From contig JASCQW010000043.1 in assembly GCA_030264375.1 (NCBI GenBank), positions 78,979,069 through 79,043,068 of the forward strand: 64,000 bases of DNA, given 5' to 3'. Positions 6,157 through 64,000 of the stretch are shown one piece after another. The first letter of the stretch is position 1. Every line of letters begins with the position of its first letter. Both the position numbers and the translations under genes were made by a program. This DNA comes from Carcharhinus longimanus (lineage: Eukaryota). The notes beneath the pieces were generated by a model. The model searched no databases and was not told where the DNA came from. It saw nothing but the letters and a program-made list of their open reading frames with translations.

Positions 6157-6261
6157 GGAGTTCATTCCACTATTGAAAACATCTCCTGATCCTACATGGG
6201 CCGTGTGAACAAAGTTTGTCGGCTCTCCTATCATGCTTCGGTCAATCCGCCGTCGCCGCTT
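6157..6261 (-). CDS. CDC42SE2: CDC42SE2 second coding exon (basic stretch plus CRIB domain)
   Basis: ctgttttag|AAG CGG CGA CGG CGG ATT GAC ... ATG AAC TCC|gtgagt. 105 nt, phase 0/0, encoding [35 protein letters not shown] with the CRIB consensus [14 protein letters not shown]. Joins in frame to 40740. Confidence 0.96.
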
Positions 6262-40739: not shown

Positions 40740-40793
40740 CGGTTGAGGCTGTTCCGCAATACAGCAATTGAAACACAACCAGAATTCACTCAT
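40740..40793 (-). CDS. CDC42SE2: CDC42 small effector 2 (SPEC2), first coding exon segment (codons 1-18)
   Basis: Reverse complement reads ATG AGT GAA TTC TGG TTG TGT TTC AAT TGC TGT ATT GCG GAA CAG CCT CAA CCG|gtaagt = MSEFWLCFNCCIAEQPQP. This matches the CDC42SE2 N-terminus as recalled, including the CC motif. Canonical GT donor at 40739-40738, phase 0. Confidence 0.96.
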
Positions 40794-41031
40794 GATTTAC
40801 AGTCCAACGCCAAAATGTCCTTTCAGTGGCACAGAATCCAGATTCTATATCCCAGCGTGGTCCAGCTGTCCTTCACTGGGCAGGTAAGCGTGGGCAATAC
40901 TGAGATAGCAAAGTTCCTTCTGGAATAGGCAAGCAGTAAATGGTGCAGCTGTGGGAACGAGCCAGCCGGTCCGTGTTGGAAACTTCACTGAGGATTTGGG
41001 TCACCTCACTTCCGGGGCTCAGAATGATGAC
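40740..41031 (-). other. CDC42SE2: Complete 292-nt exon of CDC42SE2 (238 nt 5' leader plus 54 nt CDS)
   Basis: Strong acceptor ctttcattttaatttcttgcag|G at 41032/41031 and donor CCG|gtaagt at 40740. No ATG between 41031 and 40794. Confidence 0.85.
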
Positions 41032-41387
41032 CTGCAAGAAATTAAAATGAAAGTAAGGGTGAACAAAAAGAAATGATGAACTGTTGAGTGTTAACGGTAT
41101 GGATTATCATTAACTGAAAGCTCAACAGTCTGTTACACCATCTATACTCACACTCTGTGGCAAGAAAAAGGCAGATAAAACATCACTAGAGAGTGTTTGC
41201 CAGCTTGTCTAAATTGGGTTTTAAAAAATCTCAAACATAATCACTATTTCACACGTACCCCCAGTCCGGATTTCAAAACATCAAAGCAGAAGGAAGAGAA
41301 AAGCAACTAAGAAAATGTCTAAAGTCTGGCACCAAACACTTTTTTTTTAAACACAGCCTGAGAAATCTCTTTTTTTCCCCCCCTCAC

Positions 41388-41575
41388 TTGGTTGAGTCAG
41401 GAAATATTCCAGGTATGAAGCTTCCCTGTAATGACTGACAGCAGCTTGGGCTGGCTATCAGCAGCGCTGTGTGGGTCTCCCAGCAAGTGTGTTCAAGAGG
41501 GAGGAAGGGCTGTGACTGCACTGCAGCTTGCGAAGAGACGAGCACACGGCAGGTGGGCGGGGAGGAGTAGGCATT
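41388..41575 (-). promoter_or_regulatory. Possible proximal promoter or alternative leader exon just upstream of the start-codon exon
   Basis: GC box (gtgggcggggagg ~41553-41565), AP-1 motif TGAGTCA at 41393-41399, and a donor-like CAA|gtgagg on the minus strand at 41388/41387. Sequence looks unique. Confidence 0.25.
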
Positions 41576-42354
41576 GTGCAACTCTACACACCACCCTGAG
41601 AAATTAGCTTAGCTTAAGGCAAATCGAGAGGCTGCAGAGAGCAAAAATCTCACCCTGAACGTGGAGCAGCAACATGCTCTGCTTAAAGGCTGCTGCAGTG
41701 GCTAAACATGAAGTCATTCTTACATTTGGATGACCAGTTTGGTTACAATTAAACAGGCTCATTACAGAATGATCCCTCCCCCTGAAGCTGCTTCCCTTTT
41801 CAACAAGGCATCTAAAAATAAAAGCACTGCGTGACACAGATGAACATATTCTATCATTTTAAACGATTTAAATTTGATTTTCAATATCTGAACTGAGAAA
41901 TTATTTCTGGAAGCGTTTGATAATTTTGACACTTGTTCAGGAGTACTCTTCCAGCTGGAGAATAGGGGCACTGGCTTTGCAAGCCACAACTGCTGACCGC
42001 TGTGCTGTTTAGCAGCGGAAATGTTCTTATCAGGGACATGCAGATGATCCCTAGAATTGTGGCTAACCACACAAGTAAAAAGGATTGCTGTTCTCAGATG
42101 CATTCTGTTGTAAATTCTTTCCAATTTCTAATCCACACTACAACATTGTAGCATAATAGTATAATAGCAACTCAGATAACAAAAGGAACTATTTCCATTT
42201 TTAAATCTTTTTCAATGGTTTTTGAATTACTGAAACAAGGTGACTTATTTTATTTCTTCTATTGATTACAAGCAATTTATAGATTTTTTGAGACAACTTT
42301 TGCACATTTCAGACCTTTAATCTGTCCCAACTCTCTTCCCTTTACCTCTTCTAT

Positions 42355-42755
42355 TAATTCATCTACGAATTTGGTAGCAGTCACCAAAACTAGGCTGGCC
42401 AGCGTTTATTGCCCCTTCTCAGTTGCCTCTGAAAAGGTGGTGGTGACAACTGAGTGGCTTGCTAGGCTATTTCAGAGGGCAGTTGAGAATCAACCACATT
42501 GCAGTGGCTCTGGAGTCACACATAGGCCAAACCGGGTAAGGACGGCAGATTTCCTTCCCTAAAAGGCCATTCGTCAGCCAGATGGATTTTTCCGAGAATC
42601 ATTTCATGGTCATCAGTAGATCCTCAACTCCAGATTTTTTTTATTGAATTCAAATTCCATCATCTGCCAGGGCAGGAATTGAACCCGGTCCCCAGAACAT
42701 TAGCTGAGTTTTGTATTAGTAGTCTAGCAATAGTACCACTGAGCCATCGCCTCCT
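42355..42755 (-). mobile_element. tRNA-head SINE with LINE-derived tail (second family); related pieces at 5510-5700 and 53635-53880
   Basis: ggctggccagcgtttattgccc...tctggagtcacacataggcca...ggcagatttccttccctaaa is shared with 5540-5680. Head gaattgaacccgg...ccactgagccatcgcctcc. Confidence 0.65.
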
Positions 42756-42897
42756 CATAACCTATTAGTGTTCTTAGATAGTTATGTAATAGAACAAGGC
42801 TACAAAACAAAGTCAAGCTATGGCTTCCACTTGCTCCCTATGTCTTTTTGGGCCACTGCTACAGAATCTCTCCCTCCCATAAGAAGCTCTCTTGCCA

Positions 42898-43013
42898 GTA
42901 CATGCAAACTCCGCAGAGAAGGTGCAAACTCTACAGAGTCACCCAAGCAGAGAATCGAACCCGGATCCTTGATGCTGTGAGGCAGCAGTGCTAACCACTG
43001 TGCCACCATGCCG
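42898..43013 (-). mobile_element. HE1-type SINE head
   Basis: gaatcgaacccggatcc...gcagcagtgctaaccactgtgccaccatgcc. Confidence 0.8.
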
Positions 43014-43399
43014 GCCTCATCTGAAGAGCCTGTTAACAGTTGCTGCACATTCCCGGGGTTCATTTGTCTCTGACTAATCTTCCAATCTTGCTGCCTGCCC
43101 GATCTGCTAAAAATGCCTCTGTCCACATTCCTTTTGTGTGTTGTACTGACGCCTGAGCCCCAGCTTGGAACAATCTAGAAAGGCTGCACTCAGAGTCCTT
43201 CCCCACTTTGTCACACTACAGAATGTCCCCCCTTGACATTCCTGGAAATGACTGCTTCCCCAGAAGTTTTCTTTTTAAAAATCAGTGGACATTAGATTCA
43301 AAGAAGTGTATTTTTCTGGGAAACAAATACCAGCAAAGCCCAGGAGCTTATCCACACACAACACTTCAGCATAATTTACCCACAATGTGGTGGATAAAT

Positions 43400-44780
43400 T
43401 GTTGGGAGGTATTTTGAGAGATAGGATCGACAGGCATTCAGAGGTGCAAGGACCGATTAGGGACAGTCAGCATAGCTTAGTGAGTGGAAAATCATGTTTC
43501 ACAAAGTTAATTGAGGTATTTTTGAAGGGGTAACCAAGAAGGTTGTTGAGGACAATGTAGTTGATGCTGTCTACATGGACTTTAGCCAGGCCTTTGATAA
43601 GATACCGCATGGTAGGTTGTTGCATAAAGTTAAATCTCACAGGATCCAGGGTGAGGTATCTAAATGGATACAAAANNNNNNNNNNNNNNNNNNNNNNNNN
43701 NNNNNNNNNNNNNNNNNNNNNNNNNNNNNNNNNNNNNNNNNNNNNNNNNNNNNNNNNNNNNNNNNNNNNNNNNNNNNNNNNNNNNNNNNNNNNNNNNNNN
43801 NNNNNNNNNNNNNNNNNNNNNNNNNNNNNNNNNNNNNNNNNNNNNNNNNNNNNNNNNNNNNNNNNNNNNNNNNNNNNNNNNNNNNNNNNNNNNNNNNNNN
43901 NNNNNNNNNNNNNNNNNNNNNNNNNNNNNNNNNNNNNNNNNNNNNNNNNNNNNNNNNNNNNNNNNNNNNNNNNNNNNNNNNNNNNNNNNNNNNNNNNNNN
44001 NNNNNNNNNNNNNNNNNNNNNNNNNNNNNNNNNNNNNNNNNNNNNNNNNNNNNNNNNNNNNNNNNNNNNNNNNNNNNNNNNNNNNNNNNNNGTTCATAGC
44101 TCCTTGAAAGTGGAGTCACAGGTGGACAGAGTGGTGAAGAAGGCATTCGGCATGCTTGGTTTCATCAGGCAGAACACTGAAATCAGGAGGTGGGTCGTCT
44201 TATTGAAGTTGTACAAGACATTGGTAAGGCCACATTTGGAATACCGTGTGCAATTTTGGTCACCCGATTATAGAAAGGATAGTATTAAACTAGAAAGAGT
44301 GCAGAAGAGACTCACTAGGATGCTACCGGGACTTGATGGATTGAGTTATAAGGAGAGTCTGAATAAACTGGGATTTTTTTTCTGTGGAGCATAGGAGGCT
44401 GAGGGATGACCTTATAGAGATCTATAAAATAATGAGGGGCATAGACAAGGTAGATAGTCGATATCTTTTCCTAAAAGGTAGGGGAGTCTAAAACTAGGGG
44501 GCATAGGTTAAAGGTGAGAGGAGAAAGATACAAAAGCGTCCAGAGGGGCAATTTTTTCACAGAGGGTGGTGAGTGTTTAGAACAAGCTACCAGAGGTAAT
44601 AGTAAAGGCAGGTACAATTTTGTCTTTTAAAAAGCATTTAGACAGTTACATGGGTACGATGGTTATCGAGGGATATGGGCCAAATGCGGGTAATTGGGAT
44701 TAGTTTAGGAGTTTAAAAAAAAGGGCGGCATGAACAAGTTGGGCCGAAGGGCCTGGTTCCATCCTCTATGACTATATGAC
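43400..44780 (+). mobile_element. CR1 LINE, 5'-truncated (RT domain to 3' tail), with internal gap
   Basis: VDAVYMDFSQAFDKIPHGRLLHKV and LYKTLVRPHLEYRVQFWSP...LERVQKRLTRMLPGL are CR1 RT motifs. Tail ctctatgactatatgac. Confidence 0.92.
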
Positions 44781-45111
44781 AATCCAGCAAAGCACGAAAT
44801 AAGAACTAATAATAAACAATTTCTGCCATCTTTTATATATTCTAATTCCATTTTTTATATATTCCTCAAAGGAATTATCAAATCTTTAATAAGTCATCTT
44901 TTTTACAAATTTCCTCCATGAAGCTTAGTAGAAGATTCAAACCTACATTAGTGTCCAACTGATGGGCACCCAGCTCACATCACATTTTGCTTCTGATATT
45001 ACTTTAGTTTGGAATTGCCAATACCAAGGTATTTCCTTGTTTTTTTACTTTGGTAGGGGCATAATCCGTGCCCACATTTACACTTAATTTTTTTACTTGT
45101 CATAATTTTAA

Positions 45112-45392
45112 TGGGTGGCATGGTGGCACAGTGGTAGTGCTGCTGTGTCACAGAACCAGGGACTCGGGTTCAATCCTGGACTCGGGTGACTGTCTATGTG
45201 GAGTTTGTATGTTCCCCTTGCGCTTGTGTGGGTTTCTTCCCACACTCAAGGTGTGTGGGTTAGATTGATTGGACATGCTAAATTGCTCCTTAGTGTCAGG
45301 GGGAATAGCAAGGTGATGGGGCTTGGGTGGAACTGTGGTCGGTGCAGACTTGATGGGCCAAATGGCCTCCTTCTGCACTGTAGGGATTCTCA
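45112..45392 (+). mobile_element. HE1-type SINE
   Basis: gggtggcatggtggcacagtgg...aatggcctccttctgcactgtagggattc. Confidence 0.85.
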
Positions 45393-46899
45393 GATTCAGG
45401 GAATCCTGGTGGGTAATCATTCCCTGACAAGTTAGGCGTTCACCCATTCTTCACAAAGATCACTTGGGTTACAATCTTCTGTCTCAATCTTGTTCTTGGT
45501 TCCCAACCTTCACCTCATGGCAATTATGTTCTGCTACCATGCTAATTAATTATGAAACCAGTAGGAAGCCAGGCACCAACCTTTTTACTAAATAGTACTT
45601 ATTCATGGAACAAAACGTTACAACTGTTTGTCTCCTTCCTAACCAGTGTCTCAGAAGTCCCTCTTAATACTCTTATAAGAAGAATAATCAATAAATGAAA
45701 CAAGAATGAATATAAAATGCCAAGAAGAAATGTAACTAATTACATTAAGATATCATTCCCAGAGGTGATGGTGTACCCCAGCTCCGAGGGAGCCCACCGG
45801 TTGCGAAAGGTCTGAAGCATGCCAGCGGCCACTGCATGCTCCCTCTCTAAGGCTACTTAGTTGCAAATGTGGCCGTGGTACAGGGGTAAATCTCTCTTTA
45901 TATATGCTCAATCAATGCCCTGTGTATCCTCAATCTTGATAATACAATTAACACTGAATTGGAGTTCTAGCATCTCTCCAGGTTTCAGCACATGACATTC
46001 AATAAGAAAGGTTTGAACTCGTCACACAAACACTTCAACTTTATTTAAAACCTCAAAGTGCTCTATTTACACAATGCTTAGAAACCTATGTCAGACTCCA
46101 TATATGAATGATTCATGTGTGAGCTTTGCAAGTACTGTACTTCTAGTCTCCTGAGTACAGTAATGAGACTGAAAAGGACAGCATCATTTCTTGCAAGAGG
46201 TATGGATCAAGCTTTGATTTTGTCAGGAAAATCTGTCCTTAGCACAAGAATAGTAAACACTAAAACATTATTTTTGGCGGGGGGGTGGGGGCTGCTTCAG
46301 AAAGGTTTGAAAGATTTCAAATTTATGTTGACAGATACGAGGTGATAGACACAAAGGCATCTTCAAGTTAGTGGTGATGTTGCTAATGCATGCCGTTAAC
46401 CCCGGAAAAGTGTTATTCAGTTTGGTCCAAATAATAATTCCCTTCAAAATAAGTCATGTGCCATTTGATTGTTCCACATATATATCAGCATTGCAGATTG
46501 CACAAAATGGAGCAAACAGATTAGACATGCTGGACAAAAAACTGTCCAGTCATACTAAGGGAATCAATTTGTGTTGGAACATCTTAATCTGCTGAACTCT
46601 GCTTTTGTATTTTAATCAGTGCTCGAAATCAAGATTAGTCCTTTAAGCTAGTCTTTCTCAGATGAAGTGCTGAAATTGGATTATCTGTAGAGACATTATT
46701 CCCAACAAATCCAGATGCAATAGGCCCGAAAGATCATGGGCAGCGATCCTAGGAACTACACAGGGAAGGCACCCGTCAGGATTCTCCAATGTTGACTCTA
46801 CCTATGCAGGGTCAGTGGGACATTTCATTCATGCCAAGCCTTGGAGAGGCTGGAGATGAGGACACATCCAGCCTGGGAATACCGGTTCCAAATATGCCC

Positions 46900-47290
46900 C
46901 CTCCAAAAAAACATAAAAGTTACACTCAAAAGGCGCCTTTCAAAACCACCAGATGTTTCAAACTATTTTACAGCCAATGAAATACTTTCGAAGTATAGTT
47001 ACTGTTATGCTATAGGAAAAGCAGCTGCCAATTTACACACAACCAGACTCCCACAAACAGCAATATGATTGTGACCAAATATTTGTTTCTCAATGCTGAC
47101 TTAGGGATAAATATTGGCTTGGACGCCAAGGATAACTCATCTGCTCTTCAAAATAATGCCAATGGATCCTTTACATCCATCTGTGACGACAGAGGAAGGC
47201 CCAGTTTAAAGTCTCATCTGAAAGACTGCACTCTACAGTACTCTACTGCCTTGAATTTTGTGCTCAAGTACTTCTGACTCAGAGCAACAG
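46900..47290 (-). mobile_element. DeuSINE-like SINE
   Basis: ttacagccaatgaaatactttcgaagtatagttactgtt...ttgtgctcaagt, colinear with 51800-52250. Confidence 0.6.
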
Positions 47291-47591
47291 TTGAAACTAC
47301 ATAAATGCTTTCATAAGGAGATGGAGGTTCTGCTCCTTCTAAAGCTGCACAGAAAGTGGCACATGCAAGCCTGGCTTTTTTTTCCTCCATTTGGTCAGAG
47401 CTGTGGCAGGACAGTGCCTGGATTTTTGCTCCAGTCCAGAGTTTCAAAGTTCAATTTAACTACGCATAGAAATTACAACATAGAAATTACTTGCTCTGTC
47501 CAAATCAGCCATGTTGTTGTTTTTTCTCCACATGTACAGTAATCTGAATCCCATGTTCCATCTAACCACCTTTCTTTCTACAATAGGCCTG

Positions 47592-47729
47592 CAGGGCAGC
47601 ATGGTGGCACAGTGGTTAGCACAACTGCCTCACAGTGTCAGGAATCTGGATTCAATTCCCGGCTTGGACCACTGACTGTGCAGAGTCTACACATTCTCCC
47701 CATGTCTGTGCGAGTTTCCTCTGGGTGCA
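47592..47729 (+). mobile_element. HE1-type SINE head
   Basis: gggcagcatggtggcacagtggttagcac...ttcaattcccggcttgg. Confidence 0.8.
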
Positions 47730-48719
47730 GAATATTTTTGTTGACGGGTAGAATATGCGGTTTTAAACTCAGATGCAACAGAATGCCAAGGTTTTGGACA
47801 ACCGTGTCTCTTCTGCTTCCAACTGGTTTCCAAAGGACTTTGTGCCTTTCCCAAAGCCAGTGGAGCTGGTTTTGAGGACCTGAATTCACCAGTATGTTGA
47901 AAATTGGTTGAGATGGAGCTGGGATAAAACTCAAACGTCCTCAATCACTCTCAGTGGATAACAGAACATAGAAATCCCGGATTTGGTGAGTAACTAGACA
48001 CCGGATTTCAAGCCTGTGCAGGGGAGAAGCAGTGTGTGACTTGCGAGGGATCACACAGTAGTGATCACACAGGATTTGTTTCCTATCACATGGATTGTTT
48101 CCAAAGAACGTAGTTGCCTGAAGGGATGTAAATGAATGGGCTGCCTGTTGCATCTTAGCAAAACGTTTGCCTGCATTTACTACAAAATTCAAAGAGTGTT
48201 TAATGTTGGTTAGAAATTTACCAGAGGATTAGCTCAAATGCTTTAGTGTCCCTGTGGTTGCTAATATTCTGACAACTGGTATAACTTCCTATTCAATACC
48301 TGCCGCCCAGCTAACCTTCACTCAGGAAGAGGTGAGGATTAGCAGGAAAGTGATCGAGTCATGTTTTGCACTGGTGCCTGGAGTTACCCCACAGAATGTT
48401 AGAGTCTTGAAAAGAACAGTAGCCCTGTTTACAGTTGTTCAGGAAGGGTAGATCAGATCATAAAGGAAGTGCTCTGCATCATGGTCACAAATAGAGGTTT
48501 GCATGTTGAGATGAATATATCGCAATGCAAATGACTACTTCCATGCAGGACTGAGGGTTTATAAGGTAGCACCCAGCGGCAAACTCACAAACGGTGAAAG
48601 GTCTGCATTACCATGGAAAATTAGGTCAAAATCATTAATAGAAAAATATTGCAGTTGCTGGAAATCTGAAATAAAAAGAGAAAACATTGGAAAAACGCAG
48701 CAGGTCTGGCTGCATCCTT

Positions 48720-48965
48720 CACGACACACGACAGCGCAGAGTCGCTGAGCAGAGACTGATAGCCAAGTTCCACACACATGAGGACGGTCTCANNNNNNNN
48801 NNNNNNNNNNNNNNNNNNNNNNNNNNNNNNNNNNNNNNNNNNNNNNNNNNNNNNNNNNNNNNNNNNNNNNNNNNNNNNNNNNNNNNNNNNNNCTAACCCG
48901 AAAGCTAGTGAGTATATTATCAAATAAATAGGTTGGACTAAAACCTGGTGTTGTCAGACTTTTTA
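48720..48965 (+). mobile_element. Penelope-like insertion flanked by a 10-bp duplication (ctgcatcctt), nested in another repeat (48640-49025)
   Basis: ctgcatcctt occurs at 48710-48719 and 48966-48975. Internal ccgaaagctagtg...ggttggactaaaacctggtgttgtcagac. The host repeat matches 5320-5425. Confidence 0.65.
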
Positions 48966-50324
48966 CTGCATCCTTGGAGACAGGAACAGAGCAAATATTT
49001 CAAGTCCGACATGACTCTTCTTCGGAATGCTGGAATACCTCATACATGTGATTTAAACTGGTGAATGTATATTCATGAAACCAAACCATTGGCTTTGTTC
49101 ACCTTTTAATGCTCCACCCCACTCTACTGACTTAGCAGCAATTTCTATCAACCACAACTCATGCACCACATTCATACCCTCACCACACCCTCGTACACTT
49201 AGAACTGCTGCACGTTGCACACATTACCAATCATGACAGGCACCTCACCCAACACATTGCACTACATTCACTGATCCCCTTCCTCCTGCAGGACAAGATA
49301 GTCTACATGTACAGGAAGCGGCACCTAATCAGCTGCATGTTGTCATTGATGGTGCCCGTCTCATCCATCGCTGGTGCAGTCACGACTAAGCCTGTGACCA
49401 GGATTGAAACCATGGAAGGTGACAACATGCTTATTGCTAATTATCCTTCTCACATCCCACTTTGCCCTCATTCCATAATTTCTTACAAGCTGAAGATGCA
49501 GTTAGCTCGCCCCTCTTACTTTCCGTCCTTCTCGTCACTGCTGCTCATACCTATGTGTCTTTCTCCTTCCGCATATCCAAGAGTTGTAGTGGTTGAAGAG
49601 TAAGAGGTGGAAGAGGAAAAAGTGACAGAAAGAAGAACCGGTCGCTCATCTCCACAGCCACCAGTTCAGACAATGACACTACATACTTTACAGGGTATTG
49701 CTTCGATGTGGGATTCGCACATGGTGAGCCACTTGGCATGAGTGGGATGTTGCCAGGACAGGAGAGAAAAGTACCACAGATGCCAGCTTGCTGGAAGGCG
49801 AACTCACACAGGATTTCTGCTGCAATGGACTCAGATGAGGGCTTTGATGGAGTGATGTACAGTAAAATGCTGGTGGGCATGCACGCAGAAACGTTTAGAG
49901 CATTGCAAACCTATCAGAAAGACTACAGGCATTGTGGACCATGGAGGAGCTTAGCAGCAATTTTGCACACATCTTTACGTTGAACTTAGAACCCCTCCTT
50001 TTCAGTGTGGAATTGGCAATGAATTCCACTATCACACTTACTGACCAAGTCACAGTGCAGCATCAAAACACAGCACAGGTAGAATCCTGCCAACGTCAGA
50101 GTACAGATGCTCAGATTGTTTCCCTCATGGCCCTGAACACCAGTGTACAACGGAGTTTGTGATGACTCATAGCACTCCAGTCATCTGTCCTTCAACACAT
50201 TAGATTGTTGAGGTCTGGAGCTAGGCGATGTGATTCTATGGGAGCATGAAGCTGTATCCTCTCAGCATGACACCACTGACCCTCCATCAATGTGCCTAAT
50301 GCTGCTCAGTCGGTCAGCCCAATC

Positions 50325-50495
50325 TAATTTAGTTCAGTTATTAGTGTCACAAGTAGGCTTACATTAACACTGCAACAAAGTTACTGTGAAAATCCCCCAG
50401 TCACAACACTCCAGTACTTGTTTGGGTACACTGAGGGAGAATTTAGCATGGCCAATGCACCTAACCAGCACATCTTTCCAACTGTGGGAGGAAAC
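50325..50495 (-). mobile_element. SINE variant (V-SINE core with alternative tail) inserted in the Harbinger relic
   Basis: ttattagtgtcacaagtaggcttacattaacactgca...ttagcatggccaatgcacctaacc; same tail as 54640-54700. Confidence 0.7.
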
Positions 50496-50899
50496 TCACT
50501 TCCTATCTGACCCTTCCTATTCAGAGTTAGTGCAACTCAAAACTTTGTCTTCTAGAGCCACAGCCTTGTTTAGATGGCATCTGCAGTTAGCCATGTTGTA
50601 GCCACTGCGGTGGCACTGCATTGCAGCACTAGGATAGGAAGTGGCTAATGGAAGATAGGCATGAAGGGAATGCACAATATTAATTAGTTGAGTTTGGTAT
50701 GGCATATTGGACAGTTTGATTGAAAATATTGGTTTGTTTTGCAATGACTTTTGTTGTAGCAAAATGGCCAAATGGATACTGTAATGGTTAATAACAGAGA
50801 GAAGGTAAGGAGTGGGACTCTGGATGAATGGAAAACTGGATTGTGCTGCAGTCAGATGAGTTGATCAGGAAAAGCCGAGTGAGAAAGAGCCACATTGGT

Positions 50900-52390
50900 T
50901 TCTTCCTCCCTTCCTTCTCAGTTGTTAGCTGTATACCAATGCTGTGTTCTCGCCAGGATAGGGCTGTGTAGGATGCAACAGATGACAATGAATCATAAGG
51001 CATGTTTTGAAGAGTCTGCCAGAGCTGCTCCTGAGGAGTCCAGCAATGGAAACTTTACTTAAGCACGCCAATGCTCAGTTCAGTGCTGTTTTGCGTGGCA
51101 GCATAGCTCTTGTTACATGGTTGTTGCTCATGTGTGTGTGGATGGTGCACTGGAATCGTGTGCTTGGTGGTTAACGGATAGCTCTCGCCACCCTGTAACC
51201 ACCTTCTGGTTTCTCATTGTGGCTCTAATGCAGATGCCACAGTGGATTGGTGAAGAATAAAGGAACCCTGTCTGCAGCTAGGATACTGGGCATTGACTGG
51301 CATCTTGCCCCTGGACATAGGGGAAATCGGTATGGTTTTTTATTTGTGTTGTTGCACAAGGCTGCTTTAACAGTGCAATCACGTGATCACTCTGATATCA
51401 TTGGGTATTTTTGCGAGCTCTGTTTCAGTCGGGATCCAGTCCTTGTACAGCGAGCAGCTCTGAATAAACCTACTCATTGTTTTCTACAAAAACCACATGC
51501 AGCAACTCTTAATTCTGTCAACGTCTAAAGCAGCAGATACAACAGATACCTTTGTGGTTCTGGTATATATCTGCATTTACATATGGCTCCCACAAAATGA
51601 CAAGTAGGCAGTCAATGGCATCCTGAACCACCAGGGTGCCGGTCGTCCTGGCAATGTCAAGTTCTTGCACTACCTGCTTCCATCTAGAAAGAGAGAAGCA
51701 CAAATATTGACAGGGTATCAGTGGCCTCCCTTACTCTGTGGTGAACGCCTAACTACAAGAGGTTGCTGATGTCACCTGCTCCAGCCTGGAAGGAAAGGAA
51801 AAACAAAACTTACATTTACATCAAACACTTATCATGACTACCAGAGGCCTCAGAGTGTATTACAATCAATGAAGTATTTTTTGCAGTGTAGCCACTGTTG
51901 TAACGTAGGAAACTTTAGCCAGTTTCCATATATCAAACTCCCATAAACAAGGTGACCATCGTTTCCCTTTGTCATATTGATTGAGGGACAAATGTTGCCC
52001 AGAACACCAGAGATAACAGCCCTGCTCTTCTTTGATATATGGCTCTAGACTCCCTTCCATGTGAGGGGGCAGACAAGGCCACACTTTAACGTGTCATCGA
52101 AAAACAGCATTTCTGACAGTGCAGCACTCACTCAGTACAGCACTGAAGTCCCCGCTTTGATGTTTTGTGCTCAAGTCCTGGAGTGGAACTTGAACATGGG
52201 ACCCTGTTACTCAGAGGCAAAAGTGCTACCAACTGAGCCACAGCTGACACTGGTGAGGAGTCTGATGCAGAGAGATGCAGGCCACTTCTACAGGTCCTGG
52301 CAATGCTGCCCTCATCCAGCTTTGGGGCTGCAGGTCTGCCTGCCACAGGTATACATTTCTGTGACCATCTCCATCATCAATGACACACAA
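50900..52390 (-). pseudogene. Decayed PIF/Harbinger (HARBI1-like) DDE transposase
   Basis: Ordered minus-strand motifs: WQADLQPQSWMRAALP (~52300); SFQAGAGDIS (~51780); VVQDAIDC...YQNHKG (51550-51640); VNAQYPSCRQGSFILHQS (~51280); WLQGGESYPL...CNKSYAATQNSTELSIGVLK*SF (~51050-51200); IVICCILH (~50980). These correspond to HARBI1 GAIDC, NRKG, YPGS.HDS, LGDSGYP, E..FG.LK.RF and ACC.LHN. Contains stops and insertions. Confidence 0.85.
51800..52250 (-). mobile_element. DeuSINE-like (SacSINE1/AmnSINE1-type) SINE inserted in the Harbinger transposase
   Basis: L2-type tail (tacaatcaatgaagtatttttt...ccactgttgtaacgtaggaaa), core ttgtgctcaagtcctggagtggaacttgaac, and head ending ctgagccacagctgacac. Related copy at ~46900-47290. 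Confidence 0.6.
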
Positions 52391-52805
52391 GGTAACTTGC
52401 GTGCGTGTGAGCGAGAGCAGGAACATTTAGGTTGAAAGTGGCTCTATTAAGAATTAAGTCAGAGTGTCATCATGAGATGCCTCTACACATTTTGGGCACA
52501 CACTCGTAACAACAGTGTTAATGACCTGCTCAAAATGGCCTCAGACAGGCCACCACCAGGAGTACATACATGCAGCTCGGATGTTATTTCCAACTCAAAG
52601 CGGCACCTATAGTTCCAAAAAAACGGACATGGTGCAATCCAGTTTTACAGCCCCAGTTTCTTCCCGAGATTACAAGTCATAGTGCATCCAAAGTCATCCA
52701 GTTAGAATGAAATTGCCAACTCACGAGCTAGATGTGAAAAGTTTTGTGTGCGCAATCAACTTTAGGGAACATACCTGTCTGATTAGGTTGAAGTCATTTG
52801 AAGCT

Positions 52806-52923
52806 GGCGTGGGATTTTACAGCCTCGTTCTCCCCAAAATCGTAAAATCCCGCCTGGGGTCAACGGATCTTTCCAGTGTCTGCCCTGATTCCTATGGTGG
52901 ACGGAGCGGTAAAATTCCATCCC
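52806..52923. mobile_element. Short MITE-like element (GGGnnGGATTTT...AAAATTCnnCCC termini); related copies at 39392-39517, 63809-63921, 32832-32940 and 30297-30388
   Basis: gggattttacagcctcg...cgtaaaatcccgcc...ggtaaaattccatccc. 39392-39517 is approximately its reverse complement and 63809-63921 is colinear. Confidence 0.6.
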
Positions 52924-53326
52924 GTCTCAACACTCTGATGCCACAACTCACTCTCACACCTGAAGCTCCCGGAAGTTACAGCTACTGCCAATTTTCTTTT
53001 TTCAGCCCGTTGTGCCTATCCTATCTAGACAGGATCGGAAGCAACACATTCTTTTCCTCTATATACAGCAGTTAAAAATGACAATACTCAATGCAACCTC
53101 TGCTATTGCTTGTTTTTATGGTTATGAAGCGCCTGCATTTAAAACTACAGTAATGCACTGTGTGATGATAAACGGTGTCTAGACACGAGAGACGATTCTT
53201 GCACAGATGCCCTTTTCATTCAGGTCAGCCAAATGCGGAGCTATAATTAACAATCAAACATACACAGGGACCAGTGTCTTTCCTGCATAGGTCTTTTGAT
53301 TTTAACTGTTGCTTAAGTAAACTAAC

Positions 53327-53500
53327 CTCAAAAATGTTGTAAAGGCGAGCTTTGAAAAATTGGACACATTTGGCAAGTTCCGTCATTATTCAAATCTCAG
53401 CTGCTCGAAGCTGCATCGGAGCGAACAACACTCGAGCTCTTGTTCCCCGTGTTGGGCGCTCTGGTTGCCCATGCCAGCAGTTGGAGGAATCTCATTGGTT
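53327..53500 (-). other. Candidate upstream 5'-leader exon or alternative first exon of CDC42SE2
   Basis: Non-repetitive, locally CpG-enriched block ending in a donor-like GAG|gttagt at 53327/53326. The 5' boundary is uncertain: a weak acceptor cttagcccag at 53501, or a promoter with a CCAAT box (aaccaatgag, 53500-53491). Confidence 0.5.
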
Positions 53501-54639
53501 CTGGGCTAAGGCCACGCGACACAGAACGATGATTCAGTTTCGTCAAAGAAAGCGAAATGACTGAAGCGGAGCATCAACGCATTCTTTGCAAAGATGTATA
53601 GCCAGGTTCATAGCAAATTACTTCAGAACCTTTTTTTTTATTTGATTGATGGAATGTGGTCATTGCTGGCTGGGCCAGCAATTGTCGTCCATCCCTTACT
53701 GCCCTCGAGCAGGTGCTGCTGAGTTGCCTTCTTGAACTGCTGCAGCCCACGTGGCATAGGCACAGCCCCTGTGCTGTTGGAGAGAGTTCCTGGATTTTGA
53801 GCCGGTGGCACTGATGGAACGGCGATACAATTCTAAGTCAGGATGTTGTGCGGTTTTGTAGGAGAACTTGCAAGAGTTCTGGGAGGGAGGTTGCAAGTGG
53901 GAGGAGCCGGCAAAACGGGAGAGAAAGAGAGAGAGAGACGGTGAGTGGGAGGTTTGGCAAGCAGAGAGGGGCATAGAACGAACCACAGGAAAGACAAGTG
54001 AGGACTGGAAGCGACCCATATCATGAATACCATTGTCAGAAGTGGAAACACTCTTGGACTCTTTCAAATGGTATCTCGCATGTATCTGCTGCAGAATAAC
54101 TATTTGGAAGCAATCACAAACTCAAGTTCCACTCTACTGAGTCCCTGATGCAAGCGTATGGTACATAAAGGTGACAAGTGGGGGCTGCAACATGACAAAA
54201 ATCAGGAAAAGATAGTAAAATCTCAATAATCCTTGGCAACTCCTTTCAGTGCATTAAAGAGGAATTGCTGGCTTTGAATTAAAGTGCAGGGTTGGATACT
54301 GAGGAAAGCAGCCACAAAAATAAACTTTTCCAAAGATGAACATTTTAAAAATGAATAGCTTTTCAGCTCAGCCCGTTCTACAGATCATACATAATGTAAC
54401 ATTTCTTTAGGTCCAGTTCGGGAGTAGAAATATTTCTGTGAAGTCAATCATATTGAGTATTCTCTTGGGGGCTGAGTAATGCAGACCATGCAGTGGCATT
54501 GTTGCAAATTACAGTAATCAGGACAATTCACTTAATAAATGTACTTATCACAGGAATGCAGCTATAGTAGCTGCCTACTGCTTAGGCTTACTTACACATC
54601 ACAGTTAACTTCATTACAGTATTAATGAAAGTCCACTTC

Positions 54640-55775: not shown

Positions 55776-58289
55776 CGTTTCCACTTATGACATTGGTATT
55801 CACAACATGGGCCGCTTACAGTCCTCACTCGACTTTCCTGTGGTTCTTTCTACGCCTCTCTCCACTTGCCAAANNNNNNNNNNNNNNNNNNNNNNNNNNN
55901 NNNNNNNNNNNNNNNNNNNNNNNNNNNNNNNNNNNNNNNNNNNNNNNNNNNNNNNNNNNNNNNNNNNNNNNNNNNNNNNNNNNNNNNNNNNNNNNNNNNN
56001 NNNNNNNNNNNNNNNNNNNNNNNNNNNNNNNNNNNNNNNNNNNNNNNNNNNNNNNNNNNNNNNNNNNNNNNNNNNAGGGGGATGGGCGGGGGGGCTGAGG
56101 GGGAGGGCAGGCAGGTCGAGGGGGAGGGCAGGGGTCAAGAGAGGGAAAGAGTGGGGAGAGGAGGGAATGAGTGGGAGAGGCAGTGGCAAGCAGGAGAGAG
56201 AGGTGGAGCAGAACCGTGTAGAGGTGACATGATTCTTGGTTTCTGGCTGGAGAACCCCACACAAACCAATCCCATTTCACTCAGGGATCAAGTCCCAACA
56301 TTCTACTGAATGGCTGTGCCCTGTGGATCTGGTTCTGCTGTTGGCACAACAGTCACCATAGTCCTAATATCATCACTGAATCCCTGGCACAGTGAGTGAT
56401 GGCAGGAGGGAAGGTGTGGACAAGGGGGCTGTGGGGGAGAGGCTTTGACAGCAAAGATTGAGGGTTGCTCTCAACGACACGTCTTTCCTGATGCTGCGTC
56501 CCTCAATCTGGCACTGGGTGCCTTTGCAACAACAAGTAGCCCTGCATGGATCTGTTTGTCCTGCTCACCACACAGAGAGGCCCTCACCCACTGCTGGGTT
56601 AATACCAATTGAAGGTCTCAATTGGCAGATGGTTAGGAAGTCTGTCCGTAGGCTTTCCCATTATGGACTTCATCAGGGTAAGGGGTAACAGGTGGAGGTT
56701 GGGGGGTGGGGTGGGGGAAGGGGGGGAGGGAACCACCAAACTCACCACAATGGTGGGCACAAGATCTCACCCTCAGTGGGTGGGAGAGGCTGCAAGCTGA
56801 GCAGAGGCGGAAAGATAAGCTGGGCTGAGTGGATAGAGCGAGTGGATTATTAAACACATTAAAAGCAGTCCACTTGGCTGACCGTGTACAGTTACTCATG
56901 CAGTTATCTTTCGTAATCAAGTTTTATATTTTGCGCAGCAAGGTACTTTTCTGAAGAAAGACATTGCCATGAATCAATGCGGGTTTTTAAATTCTATCTG
57001 CAGCACAGTCTAACATTTCCCAGTATTGTAATTGGCCCTCACTAATTTTCCACTGAATTTCACTGACTTATAAAACAAGGGCGAAACAAGAGACAATCAA
57101 CTCAAAACAATCACTGAGAAGTCAAACAGGAAATTCAAAAAATCCCCTTTAGCCCAGGGAGTGGAGAGAACACAGAACTTGCAGCTACCTGCAGAGTGGT
57201 TCAGGTGAATAGTTGGGATATCTTTAAGGCGAGGTTAGATAAACATATGAAAGTAAAGGAAAGAGAGGATTACCCTGATGAGAGTTAGAGGACGAGAATG
57301 AGAGGAGGGTTGAATGGAGCATATGGATTGGTTGGGCCAAAAAGCCCAATTCGTGCCATCTATTTGATACAATTCTATGAAATACAAAAGGCAAATCTTT
57401 AGAATTTAATTCTATGCTAATTTGTTCTTCTACCTCTTAAAAAGAAGCTGTTTGAATGCTGTCACTCCATTCACTGGGTTATGGCCCCAGCTTCCTTGGA
57501 GAGCATAATTGCAACAAGTTGACAAGATCACTAATTGCTAGGTGTGTAAAGCAATTTGTCCAGATGGTAGGCGGGTAGCTGTTTGAGGTGGTAAGTTGGG
57601 GAGGAAGTCTTTTCCGTCATCATTCACTTGTAAAAAGTCTCCTTATAAACATGCAGTTCAAACCCAAGGGTAAATATTGAATAAGCAAGCTCCTGTATCT
57701 GGCAGGAAACTGTTGTATACCTAAAAGCACATTTAGGAGCCCCTCTGTGTGACTGTACAAATTCACAAACCAAATGGGCGTTGCTGCTTTTGTTGGCTGG
57801 GTGTACTGAGATTCTCACCCCAATTTACCCCATTACCCCAGTCAACAAAGTAATAGAAATGGCCTCAAATGTTATTCTTACTCCTAATTTCAAACAATAT
57901 GCAATAATTATGATATAGAACATGTCTGTGTATTGTACTAAATAAGCTTTATACTAAATAATACATTGGAGGTCCTCCAGCCGTGACTGGAATACAGTTG
58001 TCATGGAGAACTGGTCATATTATAATGTGTGAATCCTTAATGGTGCAGTTTATTCTTATTCCTATAAATACCAACATTTATATCTTCACTTTTACCAATT
58101 TTTATATACCCACTTTTTCTCTTCCGCTTCCCTGGTGAAATACATTGTGAACCATATGTCTTCAGGCGCTGCCACTTGCCTTCTGGATAACTGTCATTTC
58201 CAATTGGCTGATCATTTAGTTTGGAATAACTTAACACAGATGAACTAAAGGAGACTTGGCATACTGGTACAAGAATACGAAAATTAGCA

Positions 58290-63218: not shown

Positions 63219-63454
63219 ACATGTCAGTTCTTAAGAATTGGCTAAATAGTTGGTTAATGATAACAAGAATAAAGGAGTATGGGAACATGCCAGGGAGATT
63301 AAACAGTTACAGTCTGTTTGATATATGCAATCCATGTGATGTTTATCCTCAATACAAGCTACATTTTTTGTTTAATCTCCCTGGCATGTTCCCGTACCCC
63401 TTTAGTTTTGTTATCAGTAACCAATTATTTATTCAATTCTTAAAAACTGACGTG
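63219..63454. repeat. Compact inverted repeat (hairpin): arms 63219-63305 and 63369-63454
   Basis: gtcagttcttaagaattg...gggaacatgccagggagattaaaca versus tgtttaatctccctggcatgttccc...caattcttaaaaactgac. Innermost 25 bp are perfect; loop about 63 nt. Confidence 0.92.
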
Positions 63455-64000
63455 TTCTCTGCTTCAGTCATAACTCTGGTAGTACATTGCATAGTCTCAC
63501 AACTCTGCGTAAATAGGTTTTTCTGTCTCAAATGTCCTTTATTTAATTTTACATCGAAATCCCATTGACCTAACCCCCTCAATCACCAGAAGTAGTCAGT
63601 TCCTGTTAGTGACCCATCCCTTCATGGCTTTAAACACTGCTATCAAATTATTTCTTAATTCACTTAACACAGCTTTTCTTTAATTACTTTTGACCCTATC
63701 CAGTTACACAGCTAGTTACACATCTTGGATACCAGGAATCCTAAATCCCTTTTCCACATCATTTAAGGTGGTTTACTTTAAAAAAAAGCCAAATGGACTG
63801 CATCACATTGGGCAGGATTTTCTGGCCATGCTCACTCCAAACTCGGAAAATCCCGCCCAAGGCCTTTGCAAGGTCTGTGTCCCACCTACTAGGATCCCAC
63901 ATGGATGGGAAAATTATGCCTATTGATTTCCATCATCTTGTCAATATCCCACTGTAATGTCCGTTGCTCCTCGTGGGCTTCATATTTAAGTTTAGTCTTT

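Follow-up and report, generated by a model that had tools for sequence, protein, structure and literature searches.

A candidate non-coding exon with several upstream open reading frames in the CDC42SE2 leader of the shark Carcharhinus longimanus

Introduction

A CDC42SE2 leader carrying multiple upstream open reading frames (uORFs) is already known in mouse and human from published Ribo-seq. In the mouse, start peaks are reported in all three leader exons of Cdc42se2 together with two long translated uORFs, and in most cells the main start is described as an AUG within the first of these long uORFs (PMC5892948). The shark locus studied here resembles this system in that it is the same gene with a predicted multi-exon leader and long uORFs, but the starts reported for the mouse are CUG and other non-AUG peaks (PMC5892948), and sequence likeness between the mouse leader and the shark ORF could not be demonstrated.

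The human transcript ENST00000505065.2 is listed with eight uORFs and one overlapping uORF, all of 15–78 nt as against 72 codons in the shark (PMC10908861). The human c5riboseqorf89, a 25-codon AUG uORF wholly within exon 2, is a positional analogue of the shark uORF-b described below (PMC10032668), and a second human AUG ORF has its end where exon 2 meets exon 3 (PMC10908861, PMC10032668). The 25-aa uORF is primate-young according to its catalogue entry, with PhyloCSF scores of −38 (primates) and −411 (mammals) and one MS study (PMC10032668). The internal leader exon that precedes the start-codon exon is given as 169 nt in human, 154 nt in mouse and 169 nt in zebrafish (PMC4568590).

Three further systems are comparable. 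The MIEF1 uORF, MKKS uORF1/2 and SLC35A4 uORF have a similar size (50–100 aa) and a 5′ leader position, but their microproteins are described as expressed and localised, with targeting or membrane motifs, whereas the shark ORF is predicted from sequence (PMC7066179). The conserved-peptide uORFs found by ESUCA are likewise long and potentially repress the main ORF, yet they are defined by peptide conservation across taxa, none of which was found for the shark peptide (PMC7530721). Finally, the termination-reinitiation sites of caliciviruses and influenza B have a TAATG-type overlap like that between the uORF-b stop and the start of the 72-codon frame (PMC5972666). These viral systems require a TURBS with a UGGGA core for stop-start reinitiation, and reinitiation declines as uORF length grows (PMC5972666).

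Results and Discussion

The 72-codon upstream frame

The window analysed is a 64,000-nt stretch of contig JASCQW010000043.1, and two exons of CDC42SE2 lie in it:

40740..41031, minus strand: start-codon exon of CDC42SE2, with 238 nt of leader followed by 18 coding codons that begin at ATG 40793
6157..6261, minus strand: CDC42SE2 CRIB-domain exon, 35 codons

A preliminary description of this DNA had proposed a spliced uORF of 72 aa that would make the mRNA bicistronic. Its reading of the sequence was correct throughout, and the 72-codon frame exists upstream of CDC42SE2 as described:

53327..53386, minus strand: opening 20 codons of the 72-codon frame, with A at −3 and A at +4 (ataATGa), ending at the donor GAG|GTTAGT
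40873..41031, minus strand: last 52 codons plus TGA (40875–40873), within the leader of the exon that carries the main start codon

The acceptor, which ends at 41032, is strong (10.2 bits), the 52 codons continue in phase 0 from 41031, the TGA lies 79 nt before the main ATG, and the leader exon has no ATG of its own. An ATG-to-stop frame is present upstream of the main ATG, assuming the predicted splice from 53327 to 41031, which would join both parts. An N-terminal extension of CDC42SE2 is ruled out because an in-frame TAA stands directly before the main ATG.

The preliminary description had also argued that the open leader frame needs an upstream exon, here one supplying an ATG. This argument is void, because chance alone often yields frames that stay open for so long: among 3000 dinucleotide shuffles of the leader (41031–40800), at least 52 codons stayed open in phase 0 in 300 (10%) and in any of the three frames in 799 (27%). 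The 52-codon open stretch is no more than chance.

A candidate non-coding exon 2

The segment that holds ATG 53386 can be delimited as a predicted exon containing five ATGs, of which 53386 is the fourth. The preliminary description had omitted the ATGs at 53495, 53472 and 53416 upstream of it and at 53369 downstream. These open the four other uORFs of the segment:

53327..53500, minus strand: candidate non-coding leader exon, predicted, 174 nt (with an alternative acceptor 53505–53327, 179 nt)
53397..53495, minus strand: uORF-a, stopping after 32 codons; start context weak
53386..53472, minus strand: uORF-b, spanning 28 codons from a start in strong context (G at −3, G at +4)
53390..53416, minus strand: uORF-c, which shares the frame of ATG 53386 and stops after 8 codons; weak context
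53328..53369, minus strand: uORF-e, stopping after 13 codons; weak context

The TAA of uORF-b overlaps ATG 53386 in the sequence TAATG (53388–53384). The TURBS core TGGGA is absent from 53500–53327, no motif 1 lies upstream of TAATG, and the predicted RNA fold of the exon is nothing special (z 0.30), which sets it apart from the viral stop-start systems.

The candidate exon is single-copy in the genome and, at 174 nt, close in size to the internal leader exons of human, mouse and zebrafish. A zone of 53 nt upstream of it is free of AG, and less than 3% of AG gaps reach 55 nt. It retains 8 CpG, a count found in 9 of 1040 windows each 179 nt long (mean 2.07; top 1%) and similar to the 7 and 7 of the real CDC42SE2 exons. 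It ranked first in CpG among 50 candidates of 145–185 nt whose splice sites score at least as well, ranks 2 and 3 being repeats, with the size range and the CpG criterion picked after the candidate had been seen. The segment is therefore a fair candidate for the non-coding exon 2, and its size, single copy and CpG retention suggest that it is under some constraint.

A proposed cis-acting brake on CDC42SE2

The reading that we prefer, with a probability of about 45%, is that 53500–53327 is the shark non-coding exon 2 and that the 72-codon frame is the fourth of five uORFs that would damp translation of CDC42SE2 in cis, its peptide probably a by-product that is not conserved. Most scanning ribosomes would initiate at the strong-context ATG 53472 and terminate at the TAA overlapping ATG 53386, so that the 72-codon ORF would be reached chiefly via leaky scanning. 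Those ribosomes that translate it would stop short of the main ATG and reinitiate poorly because the ORF is so long, and the mRNA could be subject to nonsense-mediated decay, since exon junctions would lie downstream of the uORF stop.

The preliminary description had offered a translational brake or a microprotein. A brake is plausible, by analogy with the translated multi-uORF leaders reported for mammals (PMC5892948, PMC10908861) and in view of the exon-2 size and CpG retention; the microprotein part is unsupported, as set out below. If the cis-acting brake is real, the known uORF-laden CDC42SE2 leader would be extended to a shark, which is useful but ordinary, and it would suggest a brake kept across jawed vertebrates while individual uORFs turn over.

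A possibly unused donor

It is quite possible, if somewhat short of an even chance, that the donor at 53327 is unused and that ATG and donor lie together in an intron by chance, in which case the 72-aa ORF would never be on an mRNA and the real upstream exon would lie elsewhere, at 56950–56771 or 41631–41388, farther upstream or in an assembly gap. Three rival candidate exons were noted:

56771..56950, minus strand: rival candidate for exon 2, 180 nt, single-copy, acceptor 9.0 bits and donor 7.9 bits
41388..41631, minus strand: rival candidate for an upstream exon of 244 nt; strong sites, with a sole ATG that closes within it (38 codons)
41724..41811, minus strand: rival candidate exon, 88 nt, with ATG 41762 (G at −3), from which the same 52-codon frame would run to give 65 codons

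The first two are single-copy rivals with stronger sites than the candidate, whose donor scores 7.6 bits and whose acceptor is weak (4.6/1.8 bits), placing it 56th by splice-site score among the 86 internal-exon candidates of the window. Exon 56950–56771 also has a phase-0 ATG, with 43 codons and T at −3. About 15 kb of the 41.1–240 kb region is N and could conceal the true upstream exon.

A suitable ATG before a donor is likewise not rare. In a survey of 183,637 upstream non-N bases (positions 41.1–240 kb), scored with a splice matrix, 150 donors were at least as good as GAG|GTTAGT; 42 of these had an open phase-0 ATG, which gave at least 20 codons in 17. Within the window this was the case for an open phase-0 ATG at 3 of 14 such donors (56771, 53327 and 41724). 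The 3′ end of the candidate exon did not resemble the mammalian exon-2 end as inferred (rank 183–194 of 239 donors); in this comparison none of the other donors was conspicuous, and the start-codon exon, a certain orthologue, was also not alignable.

Sequencing runs point the same way in one respect. Of 22 runs listed, 20 contain part of the start-codon exon, no RNA run that contains it being on record. Contigs of four of the 22 were compared over 40860–53650, with tables dominated by intronic repeats. The single-copy bin 41287–41713, which holds the strong rival exon 41631–41388, was covered by contigs of all four related runs. Contig depth in bin 53243–53650 was 0, 0, 0.23 and 0, with the known exon also at 0 in three of the four, so that the blank carries no weight. 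No joint between 53327 and 41031 was among those listed (there were 938 more), in tables swamped by repeats and blank for the known exon in the same proportion of runs. Against an unused donor stand the AG-free zone and the signs of constraint given above: exon-2-like size, single copy and top-1% CpG.

A possible alternative promoter

Less probable, and in our view unlikely, is that 53.3–53.6 kb serves, perhaps in certain tissues only, as an alternative promoter with a first exon. RRCCAATSR is the CCAAT-box consensus, and an exact match lies at 53500 (53500–53492), one of 15 sense matches in 41.1–250 kb. Transcription starting downstream of this box would make ATG 53386 the first or second AUG, and the 72-codon uORF would therefore be strongly translated; such an isoform would yield little CDC42SE2. 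The CpG excess reaches 100 nt upstream of the acceptor, the combination of a good donor with a poor acceptor is a first-exon pattern, and the stretch from the upstream gene to the CDC42SE2 leader yielded no further CpG island in single copy. A CpG-rich flank at 77.3 kb was rejected as a promoter, being a repeat. The region nevertheless has a GC content of 0.47 and 15 CpG per 300 nt, well short of both promoter islands found here (27 CpG per 300 nt at 261.6 kb; GC 0.62 at the paralog), and the true island may lie in an N gap.

An improbable conserved microprotein

It is very improbable that the uORF encodes a conserved and functional microprotein of 72 aa on a truly bicistronic mRNA, at least in cartilaginous fishes. 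The frame is intact and its start context adequate, and only a peptide conserved in cartilaginous fishes and stable would be a new microprotein and make the mRNA of a Cdc42 effector bicistronic. The start would, however, be occluded by the overlapping stronger uORF-b, and an open frame of this kind has the chance level of 10–27% given above.

Conservation tests covered bony vertebrates, the same-genome paralog and protein libraries, with the uORF parts searched separately. The 52-aa part had no near-length match among 5.8 billion proteins (34 longer candidates, none at E ≤ 1) and only two matches among 1.84 billion, both repetitive proteins and not homologues; Pfam gave no match for the peptide. 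Protein libraries represent uORF peptides poorly, so the lack of a homologue there is weak evidence. The leader of the shark paralog was not alignable (32 of 300 shuffles scored as high) and has a phase-0 stop at codon 12, and the candidate exon found no counterpart in the 6 kb upstream of the paralog (score reached by 108 of 200 shuffles). The human leader has each of its three frames closed within 75 nt after the matching junction, by position 359; judged on its sequence, it cannot contain an ORF like the shark one.

Of 120 proteins listed, 12 had an extension, and ten were used (P0040 and P0091, short or fused models, being left out). None of these ten leader translations from other vertebrates aligned to the uORF (best z 2.1 in a back-translation test), with a control that detects 40% divergence at z 6–24. 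Eleven metagenome loci, mostly with invertebrate-type proteins, gave no blastn match below E 0.3; two looked vertebrate, one without the leader exon and the other of paralog type. In the files covered, the conserved-uORF tables for human, mouse and zebrafish have no CDC42SE2 row (PMC4568590). None of the papers found in a literature search treats a shark CDC42SE2 leader or a CDC42SE2 uORF microprotein. Taken with the closed human leader and the missing paralog counterpart, these results leave the bicistronic proposal unsupported.

The composite of a CCAAT promoter and exon at 53.3–53.5 kb with a lineage-specific 72-aa microprotein, stop-start coupled to the 28-aa uORF and placed before the 86-aa effector, is just as hard to credit; it would amount to a cellular multi-cistronic microprotein message that bony vertebrates lost or never had.

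As to the gene itself, its protein relatives carry the name CDC42 small effector 2. A PF05347 search gave no match on the contig bearing it. A search of the shark's own genome for a retrocopy returned one match, the query itself.

A Candidate Shark uORF in a Leader Known to Carry Several in Mouse and Human

The nearest database proteins to the gene are shark CDC42 small effector 2 (97–100% on the CRIB exon), and two of its exons were placed in the window.

41031–40740, minus strand: start-codon exon, identified as CDC42SE2
6261–6157, minus strand: CRIB exon of CDC42SE2, from the closest database proteins

The preliminary description of a 72-codon ORF on the minus strand (ATG 53386, stop TGA 40875–40873) matches the sequence throughout: its coordinates, its start context, the two parts of 20 and 52 codons, the stop, and the 79 nt that separate it from the main ATG. 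An ATG scan likewise found none in the leader portion of the start-codon exon. The sequence of the ORF is real; the splice joining its two parts (53327 to 41031) is predicted. In the most likely reading, with a probability of roughly 0.45, it works as one of several unconserved uORFs in a known multi-uORF leader. In the mouse data of PMC5892948, Cdc42se2 has two long translated uORFs, each of its three leader exons shows start peaks, and its ribosome density rises with tunicamycin, so uORF control of CDC42SE2 is already in print. The literature covered, which left the possibly relevant ESUCA supplement outside its scope, held nothing on the shark CDC42SE2 leader or a CDC42SE2 uORF protein, and the PMC7066179 supplements, as far as searched, gave no match.

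Chance and the Open Frame

At least 52 open codons were found in phase 0 in 300 of 3000 dinucleotide shuffles of the leader, and in any frame in 799 of 3000. Scored with a donor matrix, 150 donors in 183,637 upstream bases equal or exceed GAG/GTTAGT. An open phase-0 ATG precedes 42 of these 150, with at least 20 codons at 17, and with a purine at -3 and at least 15 codons at 14. Two alternative donors in the window would feed the same 52-codon frame.

56771, minus strand: alternative donor, 43 codons
41724, minus strand: alternative donor, 13 codons, product 65 aa

With so many equally good donors, the 72-codon ORF is one among many that the sequence allows, and the whole case therefore depends on real splicing from 53327 to 41031.

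The Candidate Exon

The CDC42SE2 leader has three exons in the tables of PMC4568590 for human (99/169/339–350 nt), mouse (116/154/313 nt) and zebrafish (186/169/254 nt), so that an internal leader exon of 150–180 nt is expected. The candidate exon at 53500–53327 (minus strand) is single-copy, 174 nt long and contains 8 CpG, a number reached in 9 of 1040 windows. It tops the CpG ranking of 50 candidates of like size and site score (ranks 2 and 3 are repeats), and 53332–53632 ranks third for CpG among 300-nt windows of 41–264 kb, behind a promoter island and a repeat; the criteria that favour it are post hoc.

This support is indirect, and that the ORF lies on no mRNA at all is a serious alternative, somewhat less probable than the uORF reading. 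At 4.6 or 1.8 bits its acceptor falls short of real ones (9.4–10.2), by site score it comes 56th among 86 exons in the window, and it shows no likeness to the inferred mammalian exon-2 end (rank 183–194 of 239). Two single-copy rivals have better sites.

56950–56771, minus strand: rival exon, from splice-site scores
41631–41388, minus strand: rival exon, its bin covered in 4/4 related runs

About 15 kb of the upstream sequence is N. Part of the start-codon exon is present in 20 of the 22 listed sequencing runs, with RNA on record for none. Contigs of four runs on 40860–53650 are dominated by repeats; 53.3–53.6 kb is blank, but the known exon is uncovered too in three of the four, so that this blank carries no weight. 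A CDC42SE2 retrocopy was sought in the shark's own genome and none was found. Judged from sequence, the odds that donor 53327 is in use are a little over even.

The single-copy stretch 41287–41713, 260–680 nt upstream of the start-codon exon, includes the strong candidate exon 41631–41388 and is covered in all four related runs (contig depth 8.2, 6.6, 2.6 and 7.5). Conserved element, alternative exon and retained intron are candidate readings.

Layout of the uORFs

If spliced, the candidate exon would bring five ATGs.

53495, minus strand: uORF of 32 codons, weak context
53472, minus strand: uORF of 28 codons, strong context (G at -3, G at +4), starts Met-Gly
53416, minus strand: uORF of 8 codons, weak context
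53386, minus strand: uORF of 72 codons, A at -3
53369, minus strand: uORF of 13 codons, weak context

In the scanning model ribosomes are mostly taken by an ATG in strong context. The ATG at 53472 would take most of them and occlude 53386, leaving the 72-codon ORF as a minor product of leaky scanning. The TAA of the 28-codon uORF overlaps the start of the 72-codon ORF (TAATG, 53388–53384, minus strand), a stop/start overlap shared with viral stop-start reinitiation. Unlike the viral system, which requires a UGGGA TURBS (PMC5972666), the candidate exon has no UGGGA upstream of the overlap, and its RNA fold was not better than that of shuffles (z 0.30). With its stop 79 nt short of the main ATG and exon junctions still to follow, the 72-codon ORF would act as a brake and possibly trigger NMD.

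Promoter and Gene Neighbourhood

An exact CCAAT-box consensus at 53500–53492 (minus strand), in a CpG-retaining single-copy patch (53.3–53.6 kb), could mark an alternative promoter. It is compatible with 53500–53327 being an alternative first exon, which we consider unlikely. The assembled upstream bases yielded no single-copy CpG island that could serve CDC42SE2, so the promoter may sit in an assembly gap; the largest one upstream spans 6.2 kb (neighbouring stretches L003/L004, ~77.6–83.8 kb in window-extended coordinates).

Further upstream, a first coding exon with a CpG island (neighbouring stretch L021:7853–7963, plus strand) is accompanied by exons on the opposite strand (~253.1 kb / 246.7 kb, minus, window-extended). 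These look like HINT1 and LYRM7, respectively, and the human order HINT1-LYRM7-CDC42SE2 appears to be kept in the shark. Three fish database models (P0091, P0095 and P0113) join the upstream LYR-type gene to CDC42SE2; they are probably mis-joined predictions, possibly read-through. A ~240-nt imperfect inverted repeat at 63219–63455, 78% self-complementary, is MITE-like.

Conservation of the 72-aa Peptide

The preliminary description had proposed either a microprotein on a potentially bicistronic mRNA or a translational brake. The microprotein reading found no support, there being no homologue in the protein libraries, the paralog or the vertebrate leaders compared, and these comparisons gave no sign of peptide conservation; a conserved microprotein is very improbable.

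For the 52-aa part, word-indexed protein searches found no relative, and a HMMER scan of 1.84 billion representatives gave two matches only, both repetitive proteins. None of four ORF pieces matched Pfam. As protein libraries are poor in uORF peptides, absence of a homologue there is a weak negative.

Twelve of 120 listed CDC42SE2 proteins reach into their leaders, and these extensions had no match above z 4 to the six shark frames. Back-translation alignment of ten gave z of at most 2.1, by a procedure that detected 40% substitution at z 6–24 in 6/6 trials and 50% in 2/6. Three unnamed extensions would belong to the mammalian leader, from a common four-residue motif and its spacing. In four unnamed transcript-derived proteins (P0057, P0064, P0067 and P0074) the leader runs in frame into CDC42SE2 over 78–118 codons, which hints that reading frames in the leader come and go freely from one lineage to another, or in retrocopies.

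The strongest argument against conservation is the human leader. The Ribo-seq table of PMC10908861, with 12 CDC42SE2 rows, includes ORFs that end at transcript positions 285, 298 and 359 in the three frames, and the exon 2/3 junction lies at ~284 and the main ATG at 569, so any ORF started in exon 2 must stop 210 nt or more short of the main ATG. A single CDC42SE2 uORF, of 25 aa, primate-young and with negative PhyloCSF, appears in the PMC10032668 catalogue, and the human, mouse and zebrafish tables of PMC4568590 list annotated ORFs only for this gene.

The paralog, on contig C150, shares the exon layout, but its 236-nt leader has no likeness to that of shark CDC42SE2 (the score was reached in 32 of 300 shuffles); its phase 0 meets a stop at codon 12. 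This compact CDC42SE2-like gene (L025, G000:C150:26862500-26869200, plus strand) has a CpG island ~5 kb upstream, its leader exon carries its own 10-codon uORF, and its first coding exon encodes a peptide identical to that of CDC42SE2.
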